This document shows, one piece after another, positions 1,675 to 35,457 of a stretch of 64,000 bases of DNA. Origin of the DNA: an uncultured archaeon (GTDB lineage Archaea; Thermoplasmatota; Penumbrarchaeia; JASLWR01). The stretch is from assembly GCA_964342815.1 (NCBI GenBank), contig CAYFHS010000002.1, positions 152,790 through 216,789 on the forward strand. Reading direction: 5' to 3'. Positions within the stretch are counted from its first letter, which is position 1; each line of letters opens with the position of its first letter. Both the position numbers and the translations under genes were made by a program. The notes below the pieces were generated by a model. That model was not told where the DNA came from. It did not search any database and worked only from the letters and a program-made list of their open reading frames with translations.

Positions 1675-3282
1675 TCAAAATCTCACGGGTTCGCAGAACT
1701 CACCGAACACTTCCCGGAAAACGTTTGCGATCTCACCCACCGTTGCATAAGCCTTGACCGCGTCTATGATATAGGGCATGAGATTCTCGCAGCCGGCTGC
1801 CTTTTCCCTCAGGATATCCAGTTTTTCACTTACCGCCGTATTGTTCCTCTCCGCTCTTATCGTTCGCAACCTATCTATCTGCTCGTCGGTCTTCTCTCTG
1901 TCGTAATCGTGGTACTCCACCGCCCGCTCATCTTCCTCGGTACGATATTTGTTGACGCCGACCTTCGAGATCTCTCCCGACTGTATCTTCCGTTCGGTCT
2001 CGTAAGCCTGCCGCGACACTTCCCTCTGTATGTACCCTTCCGATATGGCTTTGACTATACCGCCCTTATCGGCCACGTCCTTCATGCAGGCTTTTATCCG
2101 TCTTTCGAACTCCCCGGTGAGGGATTCCACGTAATATGAGCCGGCCAGAGGGTCCACGGTGTCTGCAAGGCCCATTTCCTCTACCAGTATCTGCATGGTC
2201 CGCAATGATAGGAGCGCGGCCTTCTTGGAGGGTATGGTATATGCCTCGTCGTAAGAGCACAGCGCCATTGTCTGTGTGCCGCTTAGAGCCGATATCAGTG
2301 CATAGTACGCGCCACGGACTATGTTGTTTTCCGGCTGCTCGATGGTAAGCCCGCCGCCTCCGCCGCCGGCGATCATTTTCATTTTCTGCGCTCTCGGATT
2401 CTCGCAGCCGTAATCGTTCCGGACAATTCTGGCCCACAATCCCCTTGCCGCCCGGAACTTGGCAATCTGTTCGAATAAGTTTCCGTGGATGTCGAAATTG
2501 AACGATAATCGAGCAATGAACGAGTCGGGGTCGAGTCCTCTTAGGAGAACATCGTCTATGTACGCTTTCGCGATTGCATAGGCATAAGCTATTTCCTGAA
2601 CCGGATTGGCGCCGGACTCTCTTATATGGTACCCGCACACGCTCACCGGGTAGTACATGGGCACGTTCCCTGCACAGAATTCTATTGTGTCGGTGACGAG
2701 CCTAATGGACGGTTCAACCGGGTATATCCACGTTCCGCGTCCAACGAACTCCTTCAGTATGTCGTTCTGTGCGGTCCCCCGGAGGCTCTCCAGCGGAACT
2801 CCACGCTTTTCCGCTATGACAAAGTACATGGCCATCATTACAGAAGCCATGGAATTGATGGTCAGGGACACGCTTATCCTGTCTATGGGTATGTCCCGGA
2901 AGGCTTCCTCCATGTCCTTCAGCGAATCTATGGCCATCCCCACTCTGCCAACCTCGCCAAAGGCCCGGGGGTCATCGGAGTCGAGTCCCAGCTGCGTGGG
3001 CAGATCGAAGGCAACGTTCAGGCCGGTCTGGCCCTGGGAAATAAGATACTTGAAACGCTCATTCGTTTCCCTTGCCGTGGCAAAACCCGAGTACTGTCTC
3101 ATGGTGAATGGACGCGCGCGGTACATGTACTGGTGTATACCTCTCGTAAACGGGAACTCTCCTGGTTTTCCAATATCCTTTTGGTAATTTCGATCAATCA
3201 CATCTTCCGGACCGTAGACCGGCTTGACCTCGATACCGGATTCCAGAACGACGTCCTTCAGTTTTAACTGAGGCCTAGGCAA
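1675..3282 (-). CDS. B12-dependent acyl-CoA mutase, large (substrate-binding) subunit, methylmalonyl-CoA mutase family with divergent active site
   Basis: PGEFPFTRG, TMRQYSGF, LNVAFDLPTQLGLDSD, GTAQNDILKE, GYHIRESGA, DPLAGSYYVE. The track start is 3303; the probable start is TTG 3282, 4 nt after GGTGAT. Confidence 0.92.
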   Translation of the reverse strand: MPRPQLKLKDVVLESGIEVKPVYGPEDVIDRNYQKDIGKPGEFPFTRGIHQYMYRARPFTMRQYSGFATARETNERFKYLISQGQTGLNVAFDLPTQLGLDSDDPRAFGEVGRVGMAIDSLKDMEEAFRDIPIDRISVSLTINSMASVMMAMYFVIAEKRGVPLESLRGTAQNDILKEFVGRGTWIYPVEPSIRLVTDTIEFCAGNVPMYYPVSVCGYHIRESGANPVQEIAYAYAIAKAYIDDVLLRGLDPDSFIARLSFNFDIHGNLFEQIAKFRAARGLWARIVRNDYGCENPRAQKMKMIAGGGGGGLTIEQPENNIVRGAYYALISALSGTQTMALCSYDEAYTIPSKKAALLSLRTMQILVEEMGLADTVDPLAGSYYVESLTGEFERRIKACMKDVADKGGIVKAISEGYIQREVSRQAYETERKIQSGEISKVGVNKYRTEEDERAVEYHDYDREKTDEQIDRLRTIRAERNNTAVSEKLDILREKAAGCENLMPYIIDAVKAYATVGEIANVFREVFGEFCEPVRF

Positions 3283-3673
3283 CTTTATCACCAACCCTCG
3301 CATTGATGAAATTAACTATGTCATTGAAATTGGATCCCGTGGGAAAGATCCCTGCCACACCTAGGGCATGGAGATCATCGAAATCCCTTTTCGGAATGTT
3401 TCCGCCAACGAGTACAATGACATCTTCCATTTTGTTGGCCCTAAGTTTCTCCGTGAGTCCCTTTGTAAGGGGAAGGTGGGCACCGGAAAGTATGCTGAGA
3501 CCTATGACGTTGACATCCTCCTGCAGAGCGGCTTCCACGATATTTTCAACCGTCCGGTGAAGACCGGTATAAATGACTTCGAACCCAGCTTCGATCAATG
3601 CATGCACTATCACCTTGGCGCCCCTATCGTGGCCGTCCAATCCCGGTTTTGCGATTAATATTCTCGTGGGAAT
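3275..3673 (-). CDS. B12-dependent acyl-CoA mutase, small cobalamin-binding subunit
   Basis: RILIAKPGLDGHDRG (DxHxxG), GLSILSGAH, VGG. The track start TTG 3640 truncates the conserved strand; the probable start is ATT 3673. Confidence 0.92.
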   Translation of the reverse strand: MPTRILIAKPGLDGHDRGAKVIVHALIEAGFEVIYTGLHRTVENIVEAALQEDVNVIGLSILSGAHLPLTKGLTEKLRANKMEDVIVLVGGNIPKRDFDDLHALGVAGIFPTGSNFNDIVNFINARVGDKVA

Positions 3674-3693
3674 GATATCACCTGTTAAAATTA

Positions 3694-4860
3694 TTAAAGT
3701 CCTAATTGCCTAGCTATCACATCTTGAAGTATCTCCGAGGTTCCGCCCCCAAACAGCAGGAATCTGGTATCCCGGTAGTATCTCGAAACGGCATACTCAT
3801 TGGAGAAACTGTAGCTTCCGTATATCCGCGTTGCCTGATCAGCTGCGCGGCATGCCACTTCCGAGACGAAATATTTTGCCATGGAAGCTTCCTTGAGGGC
3901 GTTCTCCCCCCTGTCGATCATACCCGTTACATGTTGTATTAAATGCTTGGATGCCTCGATCTCGGTGGCCATGGTAGCGAGTTTCATCCTTATGGCCTGG
4001 AACTTTCCGATAGGTCTTCCGAACTGTTCCCGCTCGGTTGCGTAACGGAAACCGTCATCATAGGCCGCACGTGCGAGGCCGAGACTTAGTGATGCCGTCA
4101 TTACGCGTATCTGGGCCAGTATCCTCATAAGGTTACCGATCCCCCTGCCTTCGTCACCGAGCCTATTTACCAGTGGTATGCGTACGTTATCGAAAGCAAG
4201 CTCGGAAATGATGGATGCCCGGGTTCCGATCTTGTCGAACTTTGGCGATACTGAAAGACCCTCCGTATTCCGGTCGATGAGAAAAAAATTAACACCCTTC
4301 AGTCCTTTTTTCCTGTCCGTTTGACATAGAACGGTGAACATGTCCGCCACCGGGCCGTTGGTGATCCAGGTCTTCGTACCGTTTATGACATATTCGTCAC
4401 CGTCCCGTACCGCGCTGGTTCGTACAGAATTCAGATCGGTTCCGGCATCAGGTTCGGTAAGAGCGAATGCCGCCACCTTCTCACCCCGAATTGCGGGTTT
4501 CAGGTATTTTTCGTGATGTTCGGGCGTACCGAACTTGAAGATGAAATTGGTACCCATTAGAGCCTGCATTGCGGTTATTGCACCGAGACTCATGGAACCC
4601 CGTGCGATCTCTTCGCACATTATGTTGTACAGAGTGGTATTGCCGCCGCCCCCGCCGATCTCCACTGGGTACCTGATGCCGAAAGCGCCGATGTCCGCAA
4701 GCTTTTTGAACATTGGAAATGGGAATTCCTCATTATCATCGATTTCCTTTGCCACAGGGATAATTTCCCGGTCGACGAATCTGGCAATCACGCTTCTCGT
4801 GAGAGCTTCCGTATTTTCGTCGATTTCTTTTGTTGATTTTTCAGCAAATGATATGTCCAT
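3694..4860 (-). CDS. acyl-CoA dehydrogenase family flavoprotein lacking canonical catalytic Glu (candidate decarboxylating 2-carboxyacyl-CoA dehydrogenase)
   Basis: AFALTEPDAGTD, NGTKTWITNG, REQFGRPIGKFQ, ASMAKY, RDTRFLLFGGGTSE. Probable ATG at 4860 (track 4869). The family call is secure; the specificity is inferred. Confidence 0.9.
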   Translation of the reverse strand: MDISFAEKSTKEIDENTEALTRSVIARFVDREIIPVAKEIDDNEEFPFPMFKKLADIGAFGIRYPVEIGGGGGNTTLYNIMCEEIARGSMSLGAITAMQALMGTNFIFKFGTPEHHEKYLKPAIRGEKVAAFALTEPDAGTDLNSVRTSAVRDGDEYVINGTKTWITNGPVADMFTVLCQTDRKKGLKGVNFFLIDRNTEGLSVSPKFDKIGTRASIISELAFDNVRIPLVNRLGDEGRGIGNLMRILAQIRVMTASLSLGLARAAYDDGFRYATEREQFGRPIGKFQAIRMKLATMATEIEASKHLIQHVTGMIDRGENALKEASMAKYFVSEVACRAADQATRIYGSYSFSNEYAVSRYYRDTRFLLFGGGTSEILQDVIARQLGL

Positions 4861-5142
4861 ACAGGGCACCTGTGGTAACAGTAGTAGGAAATTTTTTTAT
4901 TCTTTGTCGTCTTTGGAAAGTTTGAAAAGTATTCTGGTCGTATTTATTTCTTTCTTAACAAAAACATGAATCACCCATATTTTGGGTAAGAGATTAATTC
5001 CCCCGGGTCCGAATCGCAATGGAACTGATGGAATAATCAAGTGAATGTATGGATATACCCCGTGACTTGCCTTCTCACACGGCTGAATATCTACTTAATC
5101 GGGATGCGGTGGGAACGTTTCGGGAGCTACGACAACTTTCTT

Positions 5143-5930: not shown

Positions 5931-8900
5931 TTACTGGATATTTTTTAGATCATTGGACAGCATCTTGTATTCCTCAACGGTAATTTCTTTATTTATCACT
6001 TTTTTCAGTAATTGTTTCATCATATCGTCCGTATCGTCCCAATCGACCTTCACTCCAACCTCTCGTTTTGCCGTCTTTTTGCTATCCTCGATACTCTTTA
6101 TTATTGCTTCCTGGCTTACCCTCGTAACAATATCCTGGTAATCGACTCCGCATTCTGAACATCGCCCGATTTGTATTCCGCACGTGAGATGAGAAATGTC
6201 TCCACAGGGGCATCGGATCGCCTGAAGACCTGCGCTAATGTCGCCATAGCATATTGAACAGGGCATGGAATCTTCCATTTTAAATAACATAGAACGTTTT
6301 ATGGACAAATAAGACGGCTTCTTTCTCAAACTGGGACTAAACATTGTGGGCCGATCTATTTCCTCCTCTGAAAATATCTGTGGAGTGTCTTCTTCGGGGG
6401 GCCGGAAGTCCGGTGGCGGAGGCAGAGGTTTTGTTAGCACAGGTTTAATGTCCATCCTCAATGGTGTTGAAGTTATGATGGGCTGGGTTTGAATGGCGCC
6501 CGGGATCACCGTATTCATCTCAGGAGAGGGCCCCCTTAGCCCTTTATGCTCGGTTAGATGCTCGGGAGGGATGAAAGGAACTGCCTCAACGCCCGGTATG
6601 GAATTAGACGTCACTGGCCCAGGCGGACCGATCGAAGGCAGTTTTCGTGGCCCCTCCCGCTTATTCTCCTCTTTTTTTCTGTTACCTTCATCCCAGGCTA
6701 CATCGATAGTAATGCCAGCTGTCTCCGGTAGAGCCTTTATGTGTTCATCCACCCTCCCAGTTCCCAATTTTGAAGTTTCATCCATAGCGGCTCTCATAAG
6801 CGGTTGCGGATAAGGCCCCCCTCCCGGTATGGTATTGCGTTCCTTTCCAGTACCGGCAGGTGGATGTGGGATGTCTCTAAATTGCTTGTCCATATCTTCA
6901 AGAGACTCTGCCGAGATATCTATTTCGTGCGGGTATTTCTCACCCTCGGTACCACCCCCCGCTTCGTTTTTCGTCATTTTCTGAGAATCCTTCTTGACAT
7001 CCGACGATAAATCTTGTGCCTTTCTTCTTTTTTTAATGAAAATAAGCAATACCAGTCCAACAACCAGCAGTGCAATTAAATTAAGCGGAATCGATATCCA
7101 TAGTGGAACTGTGGAAACTGGATCTGTTCTCCTACCCCCCCCATCATCGGTCACCCCGGGAATCTCATCATCGGGGTCATCGTCCGGCATATCATCATGG
7201 GGAATGGGCTCTTCTTTTCCAGTGGAATTTATTGATATATCGACAAAATCAATGGCACAATTTCCCGCGAGATCCTCCACAGTTAATTTCACGGTATAAT
7301 TTCCTTCTCTTAGGAATATGAAGGACGGAGTAGGATCGAAAAGACGCACGGTAGTATTATTATAGGAAAATGACCAGGTATAGTTTAAAATTCCGATATT
7401 ATCCCGGCTGTTCGTCCCGTTGAAAACTACGTTTTCACCTTTTTTCATCCTGATATTCTCTCCTGCATCAGGAAATGGAGCATCATTATCAGTTACATCC
7501 CGAACAGTTGAGGAAGAAGTTATTAAGTTCCCCGAAAAATCTGAGAACTGGAAATGGTAACCCATCATCGTCGAGTTCATTTCTATCGTAATTGTTCCTA
7601 TCCATTCGTTCCCTTTTTCATGATACAGAAATAATCTGTGATATTCAATTCCATCAGTTGTATAATTGGCGATAGCGGAGAATATTCCCACATTATCTTC
7701 AAGAAGAACCGAGAACGTAAAGGTATCGCCGGTTGTGGGAACCGTAGAGATATTATCTTTTATCAGGACGGGAAATTCATTGTCGTGGACATCTATTCTC
7801 CGTGGGGGACAAGTGTTGAAGTTTGGGGCATTATCCGAAATATGAAAAATATATTCGAGATATACGGCGCTTGAACTGATTTCGATAGTTGAGTTCCAGC
7901 TAAGTTCATTTTGTTTATACATGGATTGACGATAAAAGGTGCTGTTATCAAAAGTGTAATTGACCGAAGCCGAAGTAACTCCGATATTATCGGCAACCAT
8001 GAGAATAAAAGTAAAACTTTCACTGGTTACCGCCAGTTGAGATGTCTGGTCAGAAAGAAATATCGGAACATCATTGTCGCGGACCAATAAGATTTTTGAT
8101 AGGGTGGTGTTTTTATTATTTGCTTTATCTTCAAAATTGAAGAAATAGGTCAAATTGGTCGCACGGGAATTTATTCTAATTTTAAACGTCCACAGTGTTG
8201 AATTGATATTGTTTAACGGGACATTGAAGAAATCCTGGGAGTCAAATGCATAATTTATCCAAACGGAAGAAATATTAATATTGTCAGTAAATTCCGCGGA
8301 AAAAAGAAAATCTTCCCCAGTTGTGGAAGTCTCCGGGGTGTTATCTTTCAAGAGGATTGGCAGGTCATTATCCGTAACGGTAATGTTCCTAGCATCCGTT
8401 ATATTCCTATTTCCGGCAGCATCTCCGAAATAGAAATAATATGTAAAAAAGGTTGCCCAGGATGGTATATCAAGAGTCTTGTTCCATTGCATTGTTTCCA
8501 TATCGAACAACGACTCGTTATGGAATTGAATTCCGTCGAATGTATAGTTTATCAGCACGAAATCGACACGAATATTATCTGCGAAATCCGCCGTGATCTC
8601 GTAACGGTCCCCGGTTGTTGCAGAATTCATGGAATTATCGAGGATCAGTTCGGGTGCATCGTTATCATTGACCAATATGTTACTTCCATGAACCCTTTTC
8701 CAGTTTCTGCCGGCATCGAGTACAGAAAAATGATATGTGAGATTTGTGGCATTTTCAAGAAGCACCGTGTTATTATACCAAATATCGTTATCGTGATGGA
8801 CCAAAGATATGTTATGGAAGATTCTCCCGTTAATTGTATAATTAACCCATACATTGACCACCGCAATATTATCGATAACAGTGGCACTGAAGTTGAATAT

Positions 8901-11900
8901 ATCTCCTGTGGTGGCATTTTTCCAGGTTCGATCGGTTACGAATGTAGGGCTAATATCATCCACGAACGTGATGAATACCAGAGGATGTTCATCTTTGACG
9001 CCCATACCACCATCCACCGAATAAGCTATGTCCCAGGTCACTCCGTTATGGGTTGCAAGGGGATAACGAGATGAGTAATCTGACCAGAAATTCCCTTCAC
9101 CCAAGTTATTATTCCATTTGTTATTGTTACTTCTGTCAAAAGCCTGTACTCTTTCGCCTATATTGGCTATGAAATTATTGTGGTGAATGACATTATTTAC
9201 TGCGTTCTGTTCAATGTAAACGCCATAATTTTTGTTCTCGGAAAATATATTGTAATGAATAATATTATTTTTACTGCTGGTGTTGAGAAAGATTCCATAG
9301 CCGTTGTTCGAACTGAGTGTGTTGTTATTGATAGAATTGTTATCGGACAGCGATACATGAATGCCGTACCCATTATTTGAAGTTATATTATTGTAACTTA
9401 TGCTGTTGTTGGAGGAGGAGTTAATGTATAGACCCTGAGTCAGATCGTATAGATGATTGTAGCGGACGGTATTATTTAAAGCGGATTGAATACATATTCC
9501 CATACGGTCATTGTTTGAGAATATCTTGTTATGTTCGATTATATTTCCACCTGAGCCATTTACCCAGATGCCTTGTTCATTTGTGTTCAGGGTGTTATGA
9601 CGGATGATGTTATTGTTGGAATAAGTTCTCGCTATAATATAAACATCATCTATGTGCCAATAATCAGTACGCCCGCTGCCGTCAGTCTGATATAAACGCA
9701 TCTGGAATGACGAATGGAGTGCTCCGGCCGGCAGGTGAAAAGTAGGTTTATAAATTTGCCCGGGTACTCCATTCCCAAGGTATTGGACAAGATCTTTCCA
9801 CGAGCTCCCTGAATCCTTGTATTGAACCTTAAGGTCATCACCGTTATCCGGATTCTCGCTGAAAGCATCGGACCCTCTTCGAATCCAGCAATTTATGGTT
9901 GCGAAATCGTAACGGCTCAGATCAAGAACCGGCGAGGTACAATAAAGAGATCCTCCCCTTGTGTACATGGATTTTGATCCGGAGTTTGCCGTATGATCGC
10001 TTACTCCCGCAACACCAACACCACTTTTGGACCATGGGGCAAGGGTGCCGTCTTCAAAGTCATCCATAAAAATAATAATACTCTGGTTTAAAAAGACACC
10101 GCATCTGTTCTTTGTCACATTGTTTTCCACTATTGTGTTGTTGAAGGAAAAGTCGAGGTATATGCCGCTCTTTTTGTTCATTTCAACGATATTACCAGTA
10201 ATGGAGTTATTATTGCTGGCCGGTGAAATGGAGATTCCGTTGGTGTTGTTCGAAAAGTTGTTATTCCGGATTGAATTATATTTACTGATATCGAGATGGA
10301 TTCCGTTGTTGCGGTTGCCGTTACAGGTGTTATTTGCCAGTGAATTATTGTCAGAATGGTATAGATGGATGGCATCCTTGTGATTGCTGTTCAATGTGTT
10401 GTTCGAGATGTTGTTAAGTTCGGACGATTCCATAAATATTCCGTATGTCGAGTTGACGCCGCTGTTGAAGCTTATCGAATTCTTAAGTGACTTGTTGAGA
10501 TATATACCGTACTCGTTATCGGAAACGTTGTTATTTGCCAATAAATTGTGGCCGCCCAGCAGAAGATATATGCCCAAATCGTTGTCAGTTACGTTGTTTG
10601 AGGCGATAGTGTTATTGTTGCTGTTGTTGAGATGGATTCCATTTGTATTACCTGTTATGTTATTGTTCTTCAGTAAATTGTCGCTTGAATCCTTCAGATA
10701 TATACCTATTACGCCATCGGTGATTGTGGAATTCGTAAGATTGACATCATGGCAATCGTACAGGATTATCTGTCCCACGTTCGTGGACCCACGTCCCGAG
10801 ATCACTAGGCCGTTAAGTGAGATTCCCCTTTCGTGGCCGTACCATCTTATTGGAATATTATTCACTACATTGGAACTGTTGACGGTGTTATCATAGGCAC
10901 CTTCCCCAGAAAAATAAAAGCCGTATTGGGCATCAGTTTTTATGATGACGTTTCCGTTAAAATCATTGTGGGCCGGGGAACCGTACAGGAGGATTCCGTT
11001 AGTGTTATTTTTGAGGTTATTGTTATTTATCTTATTGAACCGGCTGCTGTATACACTGATACCGTTGGTACAATCTGAACAATTATTGTCGATAATGCTG
11101 TTATTATTGGATTGGAAAATCTTTATTCCATCCTCACTCAGAAATTCGTAGGTATTATTTCGTATGCTGTTATTCCCCCCATATTCAAGGAATATCCCCG
11201 CAGAATTTTTCGATCCCGTATTGTTGTATAGGTTATTGTCGCTGCTATCGTGGAGAAAAATACCGTAATTGTTGTTGGCGCAAGTGTTGTTGTATAAATT
11301 GCTGTAACTTTCCTTATACAGAAAAATACCACGTGTGTTGTTCGAACAGGTGTTGTTCGTAATTTTGTTTTTTCCCCCCGAGGCGAGGTATATTCCGAAA
11401 TCGATGCTGGAATCACATAGGTTTTCCCGAATGATGTTCTCTTCTGATGTTACGAGTCGGATACCTTCTACATTGTCGGAGCAATTATTGTTTTCAATGC
11501 TGTTATTGCTACTTTTCCATATGTGAATTCCGCGTTCATTGTCCGTAAAAGTATTATTGTCAATAATGCTGTAATTTCCTTTATACAGAAAAATGCCACG
11601 TGTGTTGTTCGAACAGGTGTTGTTGGTGATACTGTTGTTTTCAGACAAATTGAGGTATATGCCAAAAGCGGTGTTGGAACCACACAGATTTTTCCGTATA
11701 GTGTTCTTTTCTGATGATACGAGTCGGATACCTTCTTCATTGTTGGAGCAATTGTTGTATTCAATAGTATTATTGGTACTGTTACATATATGTATGGCAT
11801 AGGTATTATTTGAGCAGGTATTATTTACGAGCTTATTACCATTTGAATTGTTTAGTAAAATACCTTGCTGCTTATTCGAGTTGCATTCATTGTCCGAGAC

Positions 11901-13922
11901 ATTATTCCCATAAGACGACTCTATCCGGATACCGGTATGATTTGAAACACAGTAATTTTGTTTGATTGTATTGTTCCCGCCATTATCTATAACCATACCG
12001 TACTCGTTGTTTGTGAAATTGTTATACATGATGTCATTCTTCTCTCCGTTGTTTATGTTGATACCTTGAACATTGTTGTTACAATCGTTGTACTTGACGG
12101 CGTTGTAATCACCATTGAAGATATAAATACCATATTTACCCCAACCGCAGCTGTTGTTGCGAATTGTGTTATTGTCAGAAAACCCCAAGAGGACTGGAAT
12201 CGTACAATTAGTGATGTTCTGATCATAGATTGTAATTTTCGAGCAGTTGGCCAGTATTACCTGTCCGTTGGAATTTGAAATACTACCGGATATCTCGTTC
12301 TTTCTGTAACAAAGAGGCTTATCGTTTATTTTATTAGATGAATCCATCGTATGGGAGTTCCAGTGTTCCAGCGAAGGACCTGTGATAATAAACCCAGTTC
12401 CATTTAGCTTATTCCCCGAAAACGTATTATTGCCACACGATTCCATTAAAATTCCGTTTTTACACTCAGTATCCACCATTGTCGAGTTTATAATAGTGGC
12501 TTTTGGTTCCGAAGCGGAATATTTTCTCATGATAACGATATCGTAGTAACTGTCCATTTCCACGTCTTGTGTCCAATGATCCATAAATGCATCCAAGGTA
12601 ATTTGAAAAGGTCTGTTAAAAGTTTGTATTGTATCACCAAAAGAGGGTGAATAAGTGCCGGACAATTTCTCTGAAAAGATATTTCCCTTTACGATATAAT
12701 TAAATTCAGCCGTTCCGCTCGCGAAATCATTTGGATTATTCAAAATTTTTTGATTTGCATCTTTCGAATGACCAATCGTAACCTTAAAATCACCCCAAAG
12801 ACAAATTGATAAACCAGTGTAATCACCATCATTATCCAATAATCGTAAGCTTTGCATCGACCCGCCCCCTCGATCCCAATCCAAATTAGTCCACCGCCCT
12901 TTGGAAAAAACTGTGAAATTTTCAGTATTGAATTTTTTTTTACTTATGAAACGGTATCCCGACGGTAGATTATTTGATTTCGCATAAACATGCAATTCAC
13001 CCCCTGATACCTGATATGAATGTGTACCTGCTGCAAATTCCGATACGGTCCATTTATTCTGGTTTAAGCTATTTCCACTGAAATCATCGAAAAAATCAAA
13101 CGTTTTGTTTCCATCGCTTTCCGGGTTTGCGTTGCCATCTCCGTATAACATGTACAGTTCGGATGTTCCTTTCAAAGGGATATTCACCCATATTATCGAG
13201 GTCCCTTTTGAGTTCCATTTTTCGATCCAGTAATTCAGTTTGCTCCCGTTGATGTCGTAAAATCTTACGTCATTTCCGCTGCCATTTGCCCTTGAATAAT
13301 TGAAAGTATCTTTATCGAGTTCGATCTTGATCTGATAATCTGCATCGGGTGTCACCGGGTTCAAAAGGATTTTGTTCCGGTAACCCTCAACAACTGATTT
13401 CATCTTGACCGTATTATTGTTTATTATATTGTTATGCGAATCGATCAGGTAGATGCCATTCTGATTTTTGGAGCAATTGTTCTTACTTATCTTACAGTTG
13501 TTAGATTCGAATAGTTTTATTCCTGCATCTGACTCCGCCGCTCCGCTGTTATTGATATGGAACCCGCTCACATTTACCCAACTCGAATTGATATATATTA
13601 CATTGCCGTGACCAATACCGCGGATATTCGTGCCGGTGCTTGCATTTCCCATCAAAGTGATGGATTTATTGATGATCAGATTTTCATTGTAGGTGCCGTT
13701 GTAAACAAGAATAGTATCACCTGCGGAAGCATTGTCGATGGCCCATTGGATATGCGAGTAATCCTGCGTGCCGTTTTTTCCAACCGTAGATGTAGCACCG
13801 TGACTGGAACCAATTGGGCTGAGGATTTCAAGAAATGAGAAATCGAATCCCACAAACATCTGGCTTGTCAATATTATTACAAGCCAGATTGTAAAAATAT
13901 CTTTTTTCATCAATCTCATCAT
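5931..13922 (-). CDS. giant surface glycoprotein: NosD/CASH parallel beta-helix with DUF2341-like and jelly-roll insertions, Ig-like/PKD stalk, TM, Pro-rich tail, C4HC3 Zn finger, SHOCT-like end
   Basis: 2663 aa. Signal peptide; IQWAIDNASAGDTILVYNGTYNENL; dozens of N-N-x-I-x-x-N-x-x-x-x-N-x-x-GI repeats; DVRFYD...LNYWIEKW...IWVNIP; five DN-x-x-V...NYT repeats plus a PKD domain; TM helix; CSIC...CPC...H..C...CSEC. Confidence 0.85.
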   Translation of the reverse strand: MMRLMKKDIFTIWLVIILTSQMFVGFDFSFLEILSPIGSSHGATSTVGKNGTQDYSHIQWAIDNASAGDTILVYNGTYNENLIINKSITLMGNASTGTNIRGIGHGNVIYINSSWVNVSGFHINNSGAAESDAGIKLFESNNCKISKNNCSKNQNGIYLIDSHNNIINNNTVKMKSVVEGYRNKILLNPVTPDADYQIKIELDKDTFNYSRANGSGNDVRFYDINGSKLNYWIEKWNSKGTSIIWVNIPLKGTSELYMLYGDGNANPESDGNKTFDFFDDFSGNSLNQNKWTVSEFAAGTHSYQVSGGELHVYAKSNNLPSGYRFISKKKFNTENFTVFSKGRWTNLDWDRGGGSMQSLRLLDNDGDYTGLSICLWGDFKVTIGHSKDANQKILNNPNDFASGTAEFNYIVKGNIFSEKLSGTYSPSFGDTIQTFNRPFQITLDAFMDHWTQDVEMDSYYDIVIMRKYSASEPKATIINSTMVDTECKNGILMESCGNNTFSGNKLNGTGFIITGPSLEHWNSHTMDSSNKINDKPLCYRKNEISGSISNSNGQVILANCSKITIYDQNITNCTIPVLLGFSDNNTIRNNSCGWGKYGIYIFNGDYNAVKYNDCNNNVQGININNGEKNDIMYNNFTNNEYGMVIDNGGNNTIKQNYCVSNHTGIRIESSYGNNVSDNECNSNKQQGILLNNSNGNKLVNNTCSNNTYAIHICNSTNNTIEYNNCSNNEEGIRLVSSEKNTIRKNLCGSNTAFGIYLNLSENNSITNNTCSNNTRGIFLYKGNYSIIDNNTFTDNERGIHIWKSSNNSIENNNCSDNVEGIRLVTSEENIIRENLCDSSIDFGIYLASGGKNKITNNTCSNNTRGIFLYKESYSNLYNNTCANNNYGIFLHDSSDNNLYNNTGSKNSAGIFLEYGGNNSIRNNTYEFLSEDGIKIFQSNNNSIIDNNCSDCTNGISVYSSRFNKINNNNLKNNTNGILLYGSPAHNDFNGNVIIKTDAQYGFYFSGEGAYDNTVNSSNVVNNIPIRWYGHERGISLNGLVISGRGSTNVGQIILYDCHDVNLTNSTITDGVIGIYLKDSSDNLLKNNNITGNTNGIHLNNSNNNTIASNNVTDNDLGIYLLLGGHNLLANNNVSDNEYGIYLNKSLKNSISFNSGVNSTYGIFMESSELNNISNNTLNSNHKDAIHLYHSDNNSLANNTCNGNRNNGIHLDISKYNSIRNNNFSNNTNGISISPASNNNSITGNIVEMNKKSGIYLDFSFNNTIVENNVTKNRCGVFLNQSIIIFMDDFEDGTLAPWSKSGVGVAGVSDHTANSGSKSMYTRGGSLYCTSPVLDLSRYDFATINCWIRRGSDAFSENPDNGDDLKVQYKDSGSSWKDLVQYLGNGVPGQIYKPTFHLPAGALHSSFQMRLYQTDGSGRTDYWHIDDVYIIARTYSNNNIIRHNTLNTNEQGIWVNGSGGNIIEHNKIFSNNDRMGICIQSALNNTVRYNHLYDLTQGLYINSSSNNSISYNNITSNNGYGIHVSLSDNNSINNNTLSSNNGYGIFLNTSSKNNIIHYNIFSENKNYGVYIEQNAVNNVIHHNNFIANIGERVQAFDRSNNNKWNNNLGEGNFWSDYSSRYPLATHNGVTWDIAYSVDGGMGVKDEHPLVFITFVDDISPTFVTDRTWKNATTGDIFNFSATVIDNIAVVNVWVNYTINGRIFHNISLVHHDNDIWYNNTVLLENATNLTYHFSVLDAGRNWKRVHGSNILVNDNDAPELILDNSMNSATTGDRYEITADFADNIRVDFVLINYTFDGIQFHNESLFDMETMQWNKTLDIPSWATFFTYYFYFGDAAGNRNITDARNITVTDNDLPILLKDNTPETSTTGEDFLFSAEFTDNINISSVWINYAFDSQDFFNVPLNNINSTLWTFKIRINSRATNLTYFFNFEDKANNKNTTLSKILLVRDNDVPIFLSDQTSQLAVTSESFTFILMVADNIGVTSASVNYTFDNSTFYRQSMYKQNELSWNSTIEISSSAVYLEYIFHISDNAPNFNTCPPRRIDVHDNEFPVLIKDNISTVPTTGDTFTFSVLLEDNVGIFSAIANYTTDGIEYHRLFLYHEKGNEWIGTITIEMNSTMMGYHFQFSDFSGNLITSSSTVRDVTDNDAPFPDAGENIRMKKGENVVFNGTNSRDNIGILNYTWSFSYNNTTVRLFDPTPSFIFLREGNYTVKLTVEDLAGNCAIDFVDISINSTGKEEPIPHDDMPDDDPDDEIPGVTDDGGGRRTDPVSTVPLWISIPLNLIALLVVGLVLLIFIKKRRKAQDLSSDVKKDSQKMTKNEAGGGTEGEKYPHEIDISAESLEDMDKQFRDIPHPPAGTGKERNTIPGGGPYPQPLMRAAMDETSKLGTGRVDEHIKALPETAGITIDVAWDEGNRKKEENKREGPRKLPSIGPPGPVTSNSIPGVEAVPFIPPEHLTEHKGLRGPSPEMNTVIPGAIQTQPIITSTPLRMDIKPVLTKPLPPPPDFRPPEEDTPQIFSEEEIDRPTMFSPSLRKKPSYLSIKRSMLFKMEDSMPCSICYGDISAGLQAIRCPCGDISHLTCGIQIGRCSECGVDYQDIVTRVSQEAIIKSIEDSKKTAKREVGVKVDWDDTDDMMKQLLKKVINKEITVEEYKMLSNDLKNIQ
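11300..11800. repeat. intragenic 267-bp (89-aa) tandem duplication within the beta-helix
   Basis: ttatacagaaaaat(a/g)ccacgtgtgttgttcgaacaggtgttgtt recurs at 11314 and 11581; protein NNTCSNNTRGIFLYK occurs twice, 89 aa apart. Confidence 0.85.
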
Positions 13923-14025: not shown

Positions 14026-16875
14026 ATGTTAGTGGTTTTTTTCATGATAAAGGAATCGAAATGGATTATATTCATGATCACCATTTTCCTCGTTGTTAAT
14101 GTGATCAGGTGCAATAATAGCGTATCCGCTTCTTTTCCGATAAACATTGCCTGGGTGACATTTTCGGATCACTCCAATGAAGTGGTTTCGGTATCATGGT
14201 CGCCCGACGAGGGAAAGATCGCCTCGTGTTCCTATGACGGGACCGTAAAGATATGGATCCCTTCTACCAAAGAAATCATCCGGACTTTTTCTAATCTGGA
14301 AGGATACGTTATGGACCTCGCGTGGTCCCCCGACAGCACTAAGATAGTCGCCTCCTCATATGAGATTGCCAAGATATGGGATGTGGGGAGCGGTAGTATA
14401 GTGACCACATACTCCGGTCATACCAATTACATCACCTGTGTCTCTTGGGCTGCTACCGGAAACAAGATCGCCTCTGGAGCCGGGGACAATACCATAAAGA
14501 TATGGGATGCTGTGACAGGAAACGAGATATCCGATCTGAACGGACACAACGGCACGGTGCTCGATGTCGCCTGGTCACCGGATGCAACGAAACTGGCATC
14601 CTGTTCAAGCGATAACACCATAAAGATATGGAATGTGACAGCTGAGCAAGCCATATCTTCCCTGGAAGGACACACAGGTGCAGTTAATGGGATTTCTTGG
14701 TCCCCCGATGGCAACTTTCTTGTTTCTTGTTCCTCTGATAATTATATCAAGATCTGGAACGTCACTAACGAAAACGTCATAACGACATTGTCCGGCCATA
14801 CCCTGAGTGTCAGTTCTGTGGTATGTTCACCGGACGGGACGATGATCCTTTCAACTTCATTCGACCAATCGGCGAGGGTGTGGGATTTTGAGACCGGAGA
14901 TGAGATCATAGGTCTTTTAGAACACAGCTCAGGTCTACATTCCGCTGCGTGGTGTCCCGACACTATGTCGGTGGTCACTTGTTCTGAGGATTACACTGCA
15001 AAGGTATGGTATCTCGATTTCGATGGAGATGATTTTGTGAGAGATTCCTTTCCCCTGGACCCGGCCGCCAGTAAAGATACTGACGGCGATGGAACTCCGG
15101 ATTCATGGAACGAGGGAATGAATGAAAATGACTCTCTCTATGACCTTTACTTGGATATTTTCCCGACCGATCCTTCAGCATCTGTCGATACCGATGAAGA
15201 CGGTTGGCCGGATGAGTGGAATGAGGGCTGTACCGAGAATGATAGCACGACTTGGCTGGTTCTTGATGCTTTTCCAACCGATCCTGCCGCGAGTATGGAT
15301 CGCGATGGAGATAATTACCCTGACCGATGGAACGGCGGTTATGGTCCCAATAGTTCCACTTTGGGATTAGAAAGACTTGATGATTTCCCGAATGATCCGG
15401 CTGCTAGCCTGGACACTGATGGTGATGGGTATCCGTACATGTGGAATGCCGGAAAGGGACCGACCGATTCGACCACGGGTTTAAGACTTGATGATTTCAC
15501 ATATGATCCCGCAGCCTCGCTTGACAGCGACGGGGACGGTTTTCCCGATGAATGGAATCGCTTCAAAAGCGCTTCGGATTCCACCAAGGGATTGCGATTG
15601 GATGATCTTCCGCATGATATTGCAGCGAGCTTGGACACAGATGGTGACGGTTATCCCAACCAATGGAATCAGGGAATGGGGGTACATAATTCCGTCACTG
15701 GCTTGAAGATAGATGTATTTCCAAATGACCCTGCTGCGGCCCTTGATAGCGATGGCGACGGGGCGACCGACGAGTGGGTAGCGGGCAAGGATAAAGATGA
15801 CTCTTTCGATAGATTGGAACTGGATGCGTTTCCTTATGATATTGCAGCTACCGTGGATAGCGATGGCGACGGTTACCCTGATAAATGGAACCCTGGAATG
15901 ACAAAGAAAGACTCGGTAACGGGTTTAGTTCTGGATTCATTTCCTGATGATTCCGCGGCCACTCTTGATACAGATGGTGACGGATACCCCGATCGTTGGA
16001 ATGAGGGGATGAATGAATCAAATTCATCCACGGATCTACGCTTGGATGCGTTTCCTTATGATCCAGCTGCGAGCCTGGATAGCGATGGTGACGGCTCACC
16101 GGATTTCTGGAATATAGGTAAATCCAAAATAGACTCCACCAAGGATCTTACCCTTGACGATTTCCCGAACGATACCGCTGCGAGCCTTGATACCGACAGG
16201 GATGGCTCACCAGATTCATGGAATGAACGAATGTCTCAAAAGGATTCCACTACCGGGCTTGTACTGGATGCATATCCTCATGATTCTAGTAGATACTGGA
16301 CAGAAGATGAAAGTGGAAATAACTTTCTATGGCTGGTAATGATCATTGTTATATTATTCATTGTTATCTTATCAGGAATAGGTGTATTTCTATTTATCCG
16401 AACAAGAAAAAAGAATGCAACCTCTAATCAGGAAAGTGAAAGCGAATATATTAATACCGAAGTGGATATCGTATACCCATCTACAGATTTGTCAGCTGGT
16501 GATTCATCAACGCATTTTGCAAAAAGACAACCTGAATATTACGGAAGGACCAAAAATTTTCCTCCCCCAAGTGATTATATTCCTCATCAAAGAAAGGAAA
16601 GTTTTATGGATAACATAAATCCGTATGAGCGATCCGTAGGGAATTCTATTCAGGAGGATGTTCCGGTAGGATCGGGTTGGTTGCCACCTGTGAAGAAGAT
16701 ATCCGCATCCAATCTACCCGAACCTCAAATAGCCCGGTTGCAGTTGTCCGAACCAAAATTGAAAACCATTACCTGTTCGGGTTGTGATGGAAAATTCATG
16801 GGTCAAATCTCTGTTGTGCCTTCCATGGTGACTTGTCCGTTTTGTGGAGTTGAAAAAATAATTGCTTCCTTTTAG
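14026..16875 (+). CDS. exported 7-bladed WD40 protein with Ca-binding (TSP3-like) repeat stalk, TM and C-terminal Zn ribbon
   Basis: Seven H...WSPD...S.S.D.T.KIW repeats; 11 DPAASLDTDGDG.PD.WN repeats; TM LWLVMIIVILFIVILSGIGVFLFI; CSGC...CPFC. Confidence 0.88.
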   Translation: MLVVFFMIKESKWIIFMITIFLVVNVIRCNNSVSASFPINIAWVTFSDHSNEVVSVSWSPDEGKIASCSYDGTVKIWIPSTKEIIRTFSNLEGYVMDLAWSPDSTKIVASSYEIAKIWDVGSGSIVTTYSGHTNYITCVSWAATGNKIASGAGDNTIKIWDAVTGNEISDLNGHNGTVLDVAWSPDATKLASCSSDNTIKIWNVTAEQAISSLEGHTGAVNGISWSPDGNFLVSCSSDNYIKIWNVTNENVITTLSGHTLSVSSVVCSPDGTMILSTSFDQSARVWDFETGDEIIGLLEHSSGLHSAAWCPDTMSVVTCSEDYTAKVWYLDFDGDDFVRDSFPLDPAASKDTDGDGTPDSWNEGMNENDSLYDLYLDIFPTDPSASVDTDEDGWPDEWNEGCTENDSTTWLVLDAFPTDPAASMDRDGDNYPDRWNGGYGPNSSTLGLERLDDFPNDPAASLDTDGDGYPYMWNAGKGPTDSTTGLRLDDFTYDPAASLDSDGDGFPDEWNRFKSASDSTKGLRLDDLPHDIAASLDTDGDGYPNQWNQGMGVHNSVTGLKIDVFPNDPAAALDSDGDGATDEWVAGKDKDDSFDRLELDAFPYDIAATVDSDGDGYPDKWNPGMTKKDSVTGLVLDSFPDDSAATLDTDGDGYPDRWNEGMNESNSSTDLRLDAFPYDPAASLDSDGDGSPDFWNIGKSKIDSTKDLTLDDFPNDTAASLDTDRDGSPDSWNERMSQKDSTTGLVLDAYPHDSSRYWTEDESGNNFLWLVMIIVILFIVILSGIGVFLFIRTRKKNATSNQESESEYINTEVDIVYPSTDLSAGDSSTHFAKRQPEYYGRTKNFPPPSDYIPHQRKESFMDNINPYERSVGNSIQEDVPVGSGWLPPVKKISASNLPEPQIARLQLSEPKLKTITCSGCDGKFMGQISVVPSMVTCPFCGVEKIIASF
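15058..16280 (+). repeat. 11 degenerate intragenic repeats of ~111 bp (37 aa), DxDxDG Ca-binding type
   Basis: Consensus DPAASLDtDGDGyPD.WN.G....DSttGL.LDaFP. Confidence 0.85.
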
Positions 16876-18898: not shown

Positions 18899-19250
18899 TA
18901 TTATTCCTACAAACAGTTATCATTTATAATTTTTGTCTTAATGTCGTATAACTAGCAAAATTGACCATTTTTGTAATATTCGAAAACCAACTGGACGTTC
19001 GATTATCATTTCTATTTATCCAACCCGCAGATAAAGATTGGCCGGTATTTTACCGACCTTGGAGACTACCGTCTCCTTTTGTAATCATTTTATTTTTTTG
19101 TCGGGCCTGCGTTTCTTGCGTCGCAGGCCCTTTAGGTAAACAAGTCGTCAATTGTCCCTATATGTCTGTTTTCAATTCGAAATAATAAACAATGTTTTTA
19201 ATCTGTTCTTCCGTTATACGTATCTCCCACAGCAGCCACCGGGTGCCAAA

Positions 19251-20954
19251 ATGAGTGAAACGATCAAAAGAATATCAAAACGATACCGCCGCGTGATTCT
19301 TTTATTCATGTTCTTCACCGGTGTATGCTCCTTTGGTTACGAGGTTCTGTTAGAGCGAGCCGTTGGAATACTCGTTGGCTCTTCATCGGTGGCAATGGGT
19401 CTCATCATATCCACGTTCATAATGGGATACCTCTCGTCGTTCTACTTCGGGAAACTGGCGGACCGCGTCGAATCCAAAAGGAAACTCGTAACCATGCTGG
19501 CAATGCTCGAGTGTCTTATCTGCATCGCCCTCGTTCTCGTGATACCCATTTCGAGATACAGTCTGCTTATCGCCGATTATCTGTCCTACCTCATTTTCTT
19601 CTATTACCTGGATTACTACTACGTGCTTCTCATTACAATAGGCCTCATAGCCCTGATCGTTCCGCTTCTCATGGGCGCGGAGATACCCATTGCCATGAAG
19701 CTTATGGCCTGGGCCGAGAGGGAGGAAGGCCGCGACACCTACGGGGATGTGGGAAAGATATCCGGGAAAATATTCACAGTGGACAGTCTCGGCGCCGGGC
19801 TGGGCGGCCTGCTGACCGCTCTCTTCTTCATACCGTTCCTGGGGAGAACCTATACATCCCTTTTACTGGCCCTTACCACCCTCTGCGCGGGAATGATTCT
19901 TCTTTTTACCCATCAGTGGTACGTTCGCCGCATGGGGTTGGACCGCATACCCGCCGATTTGAAAAAGAATAAAAAAGCACACTACCTCCGGCGGAAGCGG
20001 ACCACAGCCCCCTACAAGATCGCTGTGGTCATCCTCTTCGTGATCCTCCTGATACTGGCAAACATGTCCGAGATCGAGGAAAGATCCATCGACAGGTTCT
20101 ACGGCGGGAACGTTTTATTCCATAAGGACAGCAAGTACCAGGAGATAGTGATCACCCATCACGAACCTGAGGGAACCACACTCTATCTCAACGGGCAGCT
20201 TCAGATAAGCGAGCTTGACGACGCCATGTATCACGAGTTCCTGATCCATCCTGCTCTTGTAACTCATCCGGCTCCCAGGAAGGTTCTCGTTATAGGGGGG
20301 GGCGACGGTGGCGCGGTAGAGGAGATACTGAAACACGATACCGTAATGGAAATAACCTTCGTGGAGCTGGACATCGAAGTTATTAATGTATGCAAGAAAT
20401 ATTTGAAGTCCATCAACGACAACTGTTTCAACGATCCCCGTGTAGACGTGAAGATCACAGACGGCAGGATATTCGTGAGAGACTACGAAGGAGAGAAGTT
20501 CGACGTGGTGGTGGGCGATCTGCCGGACCCCGATACCGAAGCGGTTGCAATGCTGTACACCACCGAGTTCTTCGGGGACGTGAAGAACGTGTTGAAAGAG
20601 GATGGAATATTCGTTTTGCAATCCTGCTCCTGGTTCGAGTATCCGAAGATAACCATGTCCATAGTGGAGACGCTCCACTCGGTCTTTTCGGAGGTCGACC
20701 TTTACCTGTATAACGTGTGGACATACGGCCCTTGGAGTTCAGCCGTGGGATCCGAGAAACTTATACCAAGTAACATGTCCTCGAAAGATATCGATTTTAT
20801 ATTGAACGAGCGCACGGTAACTACGGAATATTACAACGGGGACACCCACAATGCGTCTTTTTCCATGAGCAAGAATCCTTTCCTTGAAAGCGCCCGTAAA
20901 GACGCCAGGATATCGACTATTGACCGACCAATACTGCAGAACCCGTGGGAGTGA
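19251..20954 (+). CDS. speE: membrane-domain (MFS-like) fused spermidine synthase / polyamine aminopropyltransferase
   Basis: N-terminal ~7 TM; SKYQEI, LYLNGQLQ, YHEFLIHP, VLVIGGGDGG, VELD, DGR, DLPDP, LYTTEFF. Probable ATG at 19251 (track 19152). Confidence 0.85.
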   Translation: MSETIKRISKRYRRVILLFMFFTGVCSFGYEVLLERAVGILVGSSSVAMGLIISTFIMGYLSSFYFGKLADRVESKRKLVTMLAMLECLICIALVLVIPISRYSLLIADYLSYLIFFYYLDYYYVLLITIGLIALIVPLLMGAEIPIAMKLMAWAEREEGRDTYGDVGKISGKIFTVDSLGAGLGGLLTALFFIPFLGRTYTSLLLALTTLCAGMILLFTHQWYVRRMGLDRIPADLKKNKKAHYLRRKRTTAPYKIAVVILFVILLILANMSEIEERSIDRFYGGNVLFHKDSKYQEIVITHHEPEGTTLYLNGQLQISELDDAMYHEFLIHPALVTHPAPRKVLVIGGGDGGAVEEILKHDTVMEITFVELDIEVINVCKKYLKSINDNCFNDPRVDVKITDGRIFVRDYEGEKFDVVVGDLPDPDTEAVAMLYTTEFFGDVKNVLKEDGIFVLQSCSWFEYPKITMSIVETLHSVFSEVDLYLYNVWTYGPWSSAVGSEKLIPSNMSSKDIDFILNERTVTTEYYNGDTHNASFSMSKNPFLESARKDARISTIDRPILQNPWE

Positions 20955-33469: not shown

Positions 33470-34507
33470 TTATATCTTACCACTATTTCTCAGACTAACG
33501 TCCCCCGAACTTACCATGATGGTTTTTCCTTCCCCCACCTCGAGGATCAGACGCCCGTGGTCATCAATACCTCGGGATATTCCCCTCGTCTGCTGCCTTG
33601 GCCCGCTTACGGAAACCTCCTTTCCGGAAAGAAAATCTCTAAGCCGGATCCGTGCGACGATATTCTGGAACCCATCCTGGAAAAAGGTCTGGTAAGCCGT
33701 TTCCAGGGCTTCCAACAGCCCTGTAAAGATATCGATGCGTGAGAACTTTTTCCCCGCAAGCATCTTCAATGAAGCCGCTGCCGCAAGTCCTTTACCGAAA
33801 AAATGATCCTTTTCGATGTTAACGTTGATCCCTATACCGACTATAACCCAGTTCACCCTGTCCATATCGCCATCCATCCAGGTCAGTATCCCGCATATTT
33901 TTTTGTCATTCATCATTATATCGTTGGGCCATTTTATCAATGCAGGGATGCCGGAGATATTTTCAAGATAGCTGGCAATGGCTTCTCCCATGACCAAGGT
34001 AATCCTGCTTACTGCCTGAGTTGCTATATCCGGGCGCAGGAAAAGGGACATGTATATTCCCCCAACTGGCGATTCCCAGATACGCTGCAGTCGGCCCTTA
34101 CCCTGATTCTGTATCTCCGCCAGAACAACGCTTCCCGTTTCCAGCTCTGAAGCCATGGTTTTTGCCATGACATTGGTGGAAGCAGCCTCCGTGTAATAAT
34201 GATAATCCCTTCCAAAATGATCAGTTCTTAATTTATTTTCTATCAGCGGCGGCAGTAACAGGTCCGGTGTTCCGGTCAGACGGTGGCCCCTGGAGGGAAC
34301 CGAGATTATCTGAAAACCCATATCTCTGAGAACTCGAACCGACTTTCCCACGGCAGCCCTCGACAGGCCCAATCGGGCACCTATCATTTGACCTGAAACG
34401 AAGGATTTGGAATTATCATTATCCAGAAGCTCTCGCAGAACGTCCATGGTTGTACCGGTCACGGCACCGGTAGTCGCACTCTTATCATCCTTCATTCTGC
34501 AAAACAC
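33470..34507 (-). CDS. birA: bifunctional biotin-[acetyl-CoA-carboxylase] ligase with N-terminal HTH
   Basis: VSGQMIGARLGLSRAAVGK, ASTN, QNQGKGR, KWPNDI, KICGIL, GIGIN. Confidence 0.95.
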   Translation of the reverse strand: MFCRMKDDKSATTGAVTGTTMDVLRELLDNDNSKSFVSGQMIGARLGLSRAAVGKSVRVLRDMGFQIISVPSRGHRLTGTPDLLLPPLIENKLRTDHFGRDYHYYTEAASTNVMAKTMASELETGSVVLAEIQNQGKGRLQRIWESPVGGIYMSLFLRPDIATQAVSRITLVMGEAIASYLENISGIPALIKWPNDIMMNDKKICGILTWMDGDMDRVNWVIVGIGINVNIEKDHFFGKGLAAAASLKMLAGKKFSRIDIFTGLLEALETAYQTFFQDGFQNIVARIRLRDFLSGKEVSVSGPRQQTRGISRGIDDHGRLILEVGEGKTIMVSSGDVSLRNSGKI

Positions 34508-35338: not shown

Positions 35339-35457
35339 TTTATCTTGCTCCTTTCAAGACCCGGATATCTCTTGATAACCACCATTGGATTAAGTCAAAT
35401 CGTTCCTGCCATAGTTCTTTTTTCAGGTATCCCATGGTAGCTTTGGGATAAGGGAAT

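Follow-up and report, generated by a model that had tools for sequence, protein, structure and literature searches.

How does an acyl-CoA dehydrogenase (ACAD) work when neither of the two glutamates that can serve as the catalytic base in this enzyme family is in place? The question is raised by a gene, whose product we refer to as P0001, in a stretch of 64,000 nucleotides (the window) from an uncultured archaeon of the Thermoplasmatota (Penumbrarchaeia, JASLWR01; GenBank assembly GCA_964342815.1, contig CAYFHS010000002.1, positions 152,790 to 216,789 of the forward strand). The original prediction for this gene offered two explanations, i.e. decarboxylative oxidation of a 2-carboxyacyl-CoA or a non-catalytic partner subunit. 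We suggest, with a probability of about 80%, that P0001 is, broadly speaking, orthologous to IaaF, i.e. to the flavin adenine dinucleotide (FAD)-dependent benzylmalonyl-CoA dehydrogenase (decarboxylating).

IaaF of Aromatoleum aromaticum is an active FAD-containing homotetramer (Schuhle 2021; PMC8360864) that turns benzylmalonyl-CoA into cinnamoyl-CoA with release of CO2 in the anaerobic breakdown of indoleacetate (PMC8360864). Its substrate is produced from an arylsuccinyl-CoA by the B12-dependent mutase IaaGH, and the replacement of the catalytic YEG motif by GGG without an alternative Glu is the hallmark of the IaaF subclass (PMC8360864). In the mechanism proposed for IaaF, loss of the 2-carboxyl group takes the place of proton abstraction from C2 (PMC8360864). 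The class, its motif and its mechanism were already published in 2021, and P0001 adds no new mechanism.

Both known base positions are vacant in an intact ACAD fold

P0001 has the three ACAD domains PF02771, PF02770 and PF00441, each matched over its full length in Pfam, and its closest solved structures are ACADs of the butyryl-CoA dehydrogenase (Bcd)/CarC type (E=1e-86). The motifs TEPDAGTD, WITN and ERxQFG, which contact FAD and CoA, are retained in the sequence. The open reading frame (ORF) reaches a GTG at 4869 (3694-4869, minus strand) and encodes 391 aa, and residues are numbered accordingly throughout; the ATG at 4860 is the likelier start because the members of the 90% cluster of P0001 are 388 aa long.

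Using HMMER, residues F373-G374-G375-G376-T377 of P0001 align without gaps to I-Y-E-G-T of solved butyryl-CoA dehydrogenases. Therefore, the Tyr375-Glu376-Gly377 triad of medium-chain acyl-CoA dehydrogenase (MCAD) corresponds to Gly374-Gly375-Gly376 in P0001, and the codon of Gly375 is GGC at 3745-3747 (minus strand). The alternative base in isovaleryl-CoA dehydrogenase (IVD) and long-chain acyl-CoA dehydrogenase (LCAD) lies on helix G, and at this position, the E254 position of IVD directly before the conserved helix-G Arg, P0001 has Ile254 and thus no Glu of the IVD/LCAD type. Finally, the canonical QIHGGYGY reads RIYGSYSF in P0001 (residues 348-355), with GSYSF in place of the FAD-binding GGxGY. 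All three departures had been read correctly in the original prediction.

The vacant positions are a conserved trait of a family under purifying selection

The glycine triad is not peculiar to P0001. [FY]GGG is present in 118 of its 121 closest relatives (62-94% identical; from Thermoplasmata, Desulfomonile, Aminicenantaceae and further sources), the remaining three being off-pattern and uninspected, and [YN]GGG is present in 113 of 120 relatives of one homologue from an iaa cluster, with the other seven off-pattern. Every relative examined that has an intact C-terminus keeps GGG. Within the phylum, the family is patchily distributed with a member in four of 150 other genomes sampled.

An alignment of 85 family sequences was compared with 79 representatives of canonical ACADs. 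The family shows no variation at G374-G376 and I254 (100% conserved), while position 375 is E in 73 and D in 6 of the canonical ACADs and position 254 is mostly Gly in them. The GGxG[YF] motif has a family version of its own, G[AS]Y[SGA][YF]. Acidic residues conserved in at least 95% of the family are commonly acidic in canonical ACADs, too, with the sole exception of D344, which is located four residues ahead of the family-specific Arg348 in the helix bearing the altered GGxG motif. Because the conserved acids other than D344 are shared with canonical ACADs, no replacement base is evident; in other words, this conservation analysis, which is at the sequence level only, yielded no candidate for a relocated base in the 85-sequence family alignment. 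By reference to MCAD and IVD structures, we assume that the acyl pocket is lined by positions 99, 101, 104, 105, 254, 257, 258 and 370-376, and none of these varies among the 85 sequences. The clade of iaa-cluster proteins and the group to which P0001 belongs differ at only 28 positions, mostly by conservative changes.

Selection acts to maintain the gene. In a comparison with locus L087, a relative at 92% identity, the ACAD has a ratio of nonsynonymous to synonymous substitution rates (dN/dS) of 0.04, and the large subunit of the adjacent mutase one of 0.06. Because GGG is kept in relatives, the fold and the FAD motifs are intact and dN/dS is 0.04, the variant residues of P0001 are the result of neither chance nor decay.

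These observations leave little room for the second explanation offered originally. A non-catalytic or degenerate subunit, i.e. the partner in a heteromeric ACAD or a decaying gene, might well have lost both known base positions and acquired an altered GGxGY as seen here. However, such a subunit would not be expected to retain TEPDAGTD, WITN and ERxQFG, to share its variant residues invariantly with hundreds of archaeal and bacterial sequences or to evolve at a dN/dS of 0.04. Moreover, there is no second ACAD gene adjacent to that of P0001 in the window, the score of P0001 with the IpdE2 model NF050027 is 52.7 bits and therefore far below the cut-off of 450, and the characterised IaaF works as a homotetramer (PMC8360864). 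We therefore regard a non-catalytic role of P0001 as scarcely credible.

P0001 belongs to a clade that includes proteins of iaa-type clusters

A contig scan with P0001 alone returned 80 loci with only four family members, and the outgroup sequences L006 and L007, which have an iaa-like context, were taken from it. When the family alignment was used as the seed of a metagenome scan, 80 loci were obtained (56-92% identity), the neighbours of which were mapped by tblastn. In a maximum-likelihood tree of 99 sequences, P0001 and 84 relatives form a single clade with a support of 96 in the Shimodaira-Hasegawa-like approximate likelihood-ratio test (SH-aLRT). This clade includes proteins from iaa-type clusters of uncultured organisms resembling Desulfatiglandales and Desulfobacterales. 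Within it, P0001 and L087 group with L004, from a metagenome-assembled genome (MAG) of the Planctomycetota, L090 and L108 (SH-aLRT 94).

Two loci of the clade illustrate the gene content around family members. L146 (58% identical) encodes a CoA-transferase III, EtfB and EtfA, i.e. the two subunits of an electron-transferring flavoprotein (ETF), here with a ferredoxin domain in EtfA, the ACAD, a GntR regulator, the small and large subunits of a mutase, a TRAP transporter, a PaaK-like ligase and a three-subunit molybdenum (Mo) hydroxylase, and a Desulfatiglandales MAG encodes a protein with 89% identity to the L146 ACAD. Judged by these genes, L146 is an iaa-type cluster of the kind published for strict anaerobes. 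L108, the closest relative of P0001 with a full context, has hydantoinase B/A, EtfBA, the ACAD, the mutase, a CoA-transferase III and a Mo-hydroxylase, and thus a complete iaa-like set.

Gene contexts were counted at 41 loci, the window included, for which 2.6 kb or more of flanking sequence was available on both sides. The commonest arrangement beside the ACAD is CoA-transferase III with EtfB/EtfA and the mutase (16 of 41), followed by ETF only (14) and CoA-transferase with mutase (3). Two loci each have the mutase only (the window and L087), the mutase with a MaoC hydratase and/or a short-chain dehydrogenase/reductase (SDR), and the mutase with ETF; MaoC/SDR only and none of these neighbours were found at one locus each. 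Neighbours of the ETF type, or a MaoC hydratase together with an SDR, fit a redox enzyme that yields an enoyl-CoA.

ETF genes directly adjoin the family ACAD at 32 of the 41 loci, which points to electron transfer. Because this linkage is so frequent, it is very unlikely that P0001 is instead a non-redox lyase built on the ACAD fold that, similarly to 3-sulfinopropionyl-CoA desulfinase, would turn a substituted malonyl-CoA into the saturated acyl-CoA. A mutase followed by a decarboxylase does occur in other pathways, for instance that of the E. coli sbm operon, and the desulfinase structure 5af7 is a distant solved relative of P0001. The desulfinase also lacks the catalytic Glu, having an AGG motif, but the characterised GGG enzyme is an oxidoreductase (PMC8360864), and P0001 reaches 238.4 bits with the desulfinase model NF042439, the cut-off of which is 600.

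Several other arrangements were observed among the relatives. In two subclades of GGG-type ACADs (L084, L085, L095-L097, L100, L106, L110, L118, L121, L122, L128 and L138), the ACAD gene directly follows an EtfB/EtfA(Fer4) pair, and no mutase, CoA-transferase or other iaa gene is present within 8-10 kb. In a Thermoplasmata subclade (L001:10001-14479, L088, L086, L005, L092 and L094), the gene for the GGG-type ACAD is separated from those for the mutase by genes for a MaoC hydratase and an SDR, and the latter two enzymes would provide the next two steps of beta-oxidation for an enoyl-CoA product. The outgroup loci L006 (3911-16527) and L007 from Chloroflexota/Anaerolineales encode a GGG-type ACAD that is 50% identical and has LGGG; its surroundings comprise two sets of Mo-hydroxylase genes and genes for a CoA-transferase III, an aminotransferase, another ACAD and a member of the glyoxalase family, with no mutase seen within the annotated part.

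The adjacent split B12 mutase has an unusual active-site signature

The ACAD gene is the first of an operon at 1675-4860 (minus strand) and is followed by two genes that encode a split B12-dependent acyl-CoA mutase, first its small and then its large subunit (Table 1). The two mutase genes overlap by 29 nt.

Table 1. Positions in the window of the operon genes and of the diagnostic codons
Feature	Position	Strand	Basis or remark
Putative IaaF-type acyl-CoA dehydrogenase gene (P0001)	3694..4860	-	388 aa from ATG 4860; Pfam and solved relatives
G374-G375-G376 codons (GGG for the canonical Y-E-G catalytic loop)	3742..3750	-	Alignment, family conservation, published IaaF hallmark
GSYSF, residues 351-355 (canonical GGxG[YF])	3805..3819	-	ORF translation and alignment
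Ile254 codon ATA (alternative IVD/LCAD-type base site, helix G)	4108..4110	-	Alignment
B12-binding small mutase subunit (IaaG/H-like)	3275..3676	-	Pfam B12-binding and TIGR00640; upstream limit uncertain
Large subunit of split B12-dependent acyl-CoA mutase	1675..3303	-	PF01642 E=1.7e-190; TIGR00641
Codons of six successive Gly in the large subunit, G313-G318 (canonical H-x-Q-T-x-G-[WC])	2350..2367	-	Alignments
Large-subunit Arg189 (EFVGRG), counterpart of Arg207 in methylmalonyl-CoA mutase (MCM), substrate-carboxylate binder	2737..2739	-	Alignments
Large-subunit Tyr71 (RQYSGF), counterpart of Tyr89 in MCM	3091..3093	-	Alignments

In an alignment to solved mutases, the window mutase keeps the Tyr (RQYSGF), Arg (EFVGRG) and GYH of the enzymes for dicarboxylates; the roles of these residues are presumably those in MCM, isobutyryl-CoA mutase (ICM) and 2-hydroxyisobutyryl-CoA mutase (HCM). 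Two other segments depart from the canonical pattern. H-x-Q-T-x-G-[WC]-S-L-T (e.g. HTQTAGCSLT) is changed to IAGGGGGGLT, and LHTNS is changed to ALCSY, the latter including an Asn-to-Cys change. Poly-Gly and ALCSY-type changes are common to the 38 large subunits recovered from loci with a family ACAD, and they are absent from the MCM-type (contig C10) and ICM-type (contig C8) paralogues in the same genome. With the equivalog model for methylmalonyl-CoA mutase, PRK09426, the window mutase scores 510 bits and is thus below the cut-off of 876. Altogether, these features are consistent with a substrate that is a dicarboxylyl-CoA and has a bulky substituent.

Two candidate substrates and one candidate process were given up in this context. 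Conversion of methylmalonyl-CoA to acryloyl-CoA, conversion of ethylmalonyl-CoA to crotonyl-CoA and a reductive carboxylation in the reverse direction were set aside on account of the mutase pocket, which is enlarged like those of iaa-cluster mutases, of the separate MCM-type paralogue and of the catalysis by IaaF, which is reported to be irreversible (PMC8360864). The idea of an enzyme that tailors polyketides or peptides, suspected from a 2663-aa neighbour, was dropped because the downstream genes encode the B12 mutase.

The start of the small-subunit gene is unusual. There is no ATG, GTG or TTG 5' of its conserved first strand RILIAKPGLDGHDRG (window 3640-3709, minus strand), and the first canonical start is the TTG at 3640, which encodes a Leu within RILIAKPGLDGHDRG. 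The small subunit of L087 has the same gap, but in relatives that are more distant an ATG is present 6-10 codons upstream. Near the start of the small subunit, ATC and ATT follow a GGTGAT located at 3682-3677; it is possible that the gene uses a non-canonical start codon.

The genome has three paralogues of the mutase large subunit, each with a different specificity signature. The MCM-type paralogue (C10:15186-16718; Tyr/Arg) adjoins an epimerase-like glyoxalase gene, and the ICM-type paralogue (Phe/Gln) is at C8:34319-35878; the third is the poly-Gly large subunit of the window (1675-3303). Elsewhere on C8 (75060-79640; L169:5061-9641), one strand encodes a canonical ACAD, EtfB, an EtfA bearing a ferredoxin domain at its N-terminus, a small subunit of the B12-binding type and a MeaB GTPase; the matching mutase large subunit is not adjacent.

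Other iaa-like genes are dispersed in the genome

The assembly comprises 4.35 Mb and is 89% complete. Its small-subunit rRNA reaches 1513 bits with the archaeal model compared to 1096 with the bacterial model, in line with an archaeal genome, and the 90% cluster of P0001 bears the name Candidatus Thermoplasmatota. P0001 is its only GGG-type ACAD, and the other ACADs are at most 41% identical to P0001. Genes for hydantoinase A, hydantoinase B and a CoA-transferase III are present at C2:9481-14541, i.e. on the same contig as the operon and 146 kb from it. A hydantoinase-like enzyme, iaaCE, belongs to the iaa cluster (PMC8453981), and the hydantoinase pair of this genome is 63-82% identical to pairs that the loci L105, L108, L111 and L162 have beside their family ACADs. 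Contig C14 encodes a Mo-hydroxylase that is 50-58% identical to those of iaa-like clusters. There are three pairs of ferredoxin-domain ETFs elsewhere in the genome, and Desulfatiglans anilini has iaa operons with an ETF of their own (PMC8360864). We suggest that P0001 and its IaaGH-type mutase are probably part of a dispersed indoleacetate-like (arylsuccinate) pathway and that the electron acceptor of P0001 is probably one of the ferredoxin-domain ETFs.

About 9 kb from the mutase gene, an operon at C2:143328-145663 (L174:5328-7664) encodes an SDR, a thiolase and a DUF35 protein (ChsH2-type OB/zinc-ribbon). Its SDR has 44% identity to the one encoded in the ACAD-MaoC-SDR clusters of Thermoplasmata. 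Archaeal pilus genes separate this operon from the mutase gene, and an Nre gene is also nearby.

Some findings weigh against the assignment of P0001 as an IaaF orthologue. The local operon consists of the ACAD and the two mutase genes only; at the window locus, these genes are not joined by further iaa genes (CoA-transferase, hydantoinase-like hydrolase, Mo enzyme or ligase), and the remaining iaa-like genes are either at a distance of 146 kb or on a different contig. By contrast, every member of the IaaF subclass was stated to lie in iaa clusters (PMC8360864). A ligase of the PaaK/IaaB type was not found in the 89%-complete genome. The mutase motif IAGGGGGGLT differs slightly from the IFGGGGSGMT of iaa-cluster mutases, and therefore the substituent of the substrate may differ from that in the iaa pathway. 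Finally, the orthology rests on the motif, the tree and the iaa-like clusters of uncultured organisms rather than on the characterised A. aromaticum sequence: the IaaF proteins of A. aromaticum and F. placidus are not among the 99 sequences of the tree, and a plasmid tblastn search for the named IaaF reference returned only ordinary ACADs (at most 42% identity). Protein clusters looked up for the same purpose bore no name of a cultured organism, and those found in a second homologue search were uncultured Desulfatiglandales and Desulfobacterales only.

The same findings define the main competitor to this assignment, in which the chemistry would be the same, the substrate would be another aryl- or alkylsuccinate derivative unrelated to indoleacetate and the three-gene module would be free-standing. 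This possibility stays in consideration because the module is detached from other iaa-like genes, in L087 as well as in the window, the IaaB-type ligase is missing and the mutase pocket is slightly different. It would also account for the many family members that are adjoined only by ETF, or by MaoC and SDR, and IaaF itself takes some medium-chain alkylmalonyl-CoAs at low rates (PMC8360864). Nevertheless, we consider it unlikely: the pocket positions assumed for the ACAD are invariant and identical in iaa-cluster members and P0001, the genome has a hydantoinase pair, a CoA-transferase III and a Mo-hydroxylase like those clustered with family ACADs, and L108, the relative closest to P0001 among those with a full context, has the complete gene set.

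A proposed decarboxylation-first mechanism for P0001

On balance, we favor that P0001 is an IaaF-type enzyme, and we infer its reaction, substrate and electron acceptor from the motif and from the genes that accompany it. In the proposed scheme, the split IaaGH-type mutase would convert an aryl-substituted succinyl-CoA, e.g. (2-aminophenyl)succinyl-CoA, to the matching 2-substituted malonyl-CoA. P0001 would then expel the 2-carboxyl group as CO2 at the point where usual ACADs abstract the alpha-proton, and a hydride would be transferred from C3 to FAD. The product would be a cinnamoyl-type 2-enoyl-CoA, which would be passed on to beta-oxidation. The three glycines would have two effects, i.e. 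they would provide space for the carboxylate and remove the base. Thus, the first explanation offered originally, decarboxylative oxidation of a 2-carboxyacyl-CoA, gains support from the mechanism published for the GGG subclass, the clade with iaa-cluster members, the adjacent IaaGH-type mutase and the ETF or hydratase/SDR genes in relatives.

P0001 can be compared with several known systems. A. aromaticum IaaF and P0001 have in common the ACAD fold, the change from YEG to GGG, the lack of an alternative Glu and an adjacent gene for an IaaGH-type B12 mutase, and relatives in the clade of P0001 are encoded in iaa-type clusters alongside a CoA-transferase III, an ETF, a Mo-hydroxylase and a ligase. 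They differ in that P0001 is from a Thermoplasmatota archaeon in which the operon is restricted to the ACAD and the mutase and the other iaa-like genes are scattered. Glutaryl-CoA dehydrogenase, too, is an ACAD in which oxidation is coupled with the release of CO2, as predicted for P0001. However, it keeps YEG, and its Glu370 takes the C2 proton before gamma-decarboxylation (PMC8360864), while P0001 has no such Glu and its predicted substrate has the carboxyl group on C2. IVD and LCAD resemble P0001 in having a C-terminal loop without Glu (GAG/GGG-like motifs), but their base is on helix G before the conserved Arg, where the P0001 family has an invariant Ile. The 3-sulfinopropionyl-CoA desulfinase AcdDPN7 (PDB 5af7/5ahs) similarly has an ACAD fold without the catalytic Glu; in contrast to the reaction proposed for P0001, it is non-redox, has an AGG motif and is distant (E=8e-48 compared to 1e-86 for the Bcd type).

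For the mutase, HcmAB, the split 2-hydroxyisobutyryl-CoA mutase (PDB 4r3u), has the same split architecture and is the best solved match (E=5e-143). Methylmalonyl-CoA mutase shares the Tyr, Arg and GYH for a dicarboxylate substrate. In contrast to both, the window mutase has the poly-Gly stretch and the Asn-to-Cys change, which it shares only with mutases linked to GGG-type ACADs.

Other genes of the window

The window also contains two giant ORFs of 2663 and 2662 aa (5931-13922 and 50925-58913, both minus strand) and two further large ORFs, one at 29009-33403 with 1464 aa and one at 42333-46826 with 1497 aa. On the plus strand, a 949-aa protein at 14026-16875 has a eukaryote-style WD40 propeller (Pfam WD40, E=3e-64), and tandem proteins of 600 and 580 aa at 19152-22687 have a spermidine-synthase domain in the C-terminal half only; this pair is followed by a full-length serpin (22791-24086; PF00079, E=1e-115). 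At 34571-37935, a gene for a zinc-type alcohol dehydrogenase of the medium-chain dehydrogenase/reductase (MDR) type lies between two enoyl-CoA hydratase/isomerase genes, and a BirA-like biotin ligase (33470-34507) is located beside them. The genes at 34571-37935 may function in further acyl-CoA metabolism.

Implications

What P0001 and its relatives add to the published class is modest, namely a Thermoplasmatota host, a minimal operon of ACAD and mutase, and the poly-Gly signature of the partner mutase. It is likewise a modest addition that a large share of the GGG family lies outside iaa clusters, contrary to what was stated for the subclass (PMC8360864).

If P0001 functions as proposed, the class of ACADs that decarboxylate first would extend to a Thermoplasmatota archaeon. 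The GGG-type class is abundant in metagenomes of anoxic sediments, in archaea as well as in bacteria. The combination of poly-Gly stretch and Asn-to-Cys change in the partner mutase could aid the annotation of arylsuccinyl-CoA mutases. More tentatively, we speculate that the module of GGG-type ACAD and mutase might serve anaerobes and archaea in general as a route from various aryl- and alkylsuccinates to enoyl-CoAs, in which case the family would reach far wider than the indoleacetate pathway.

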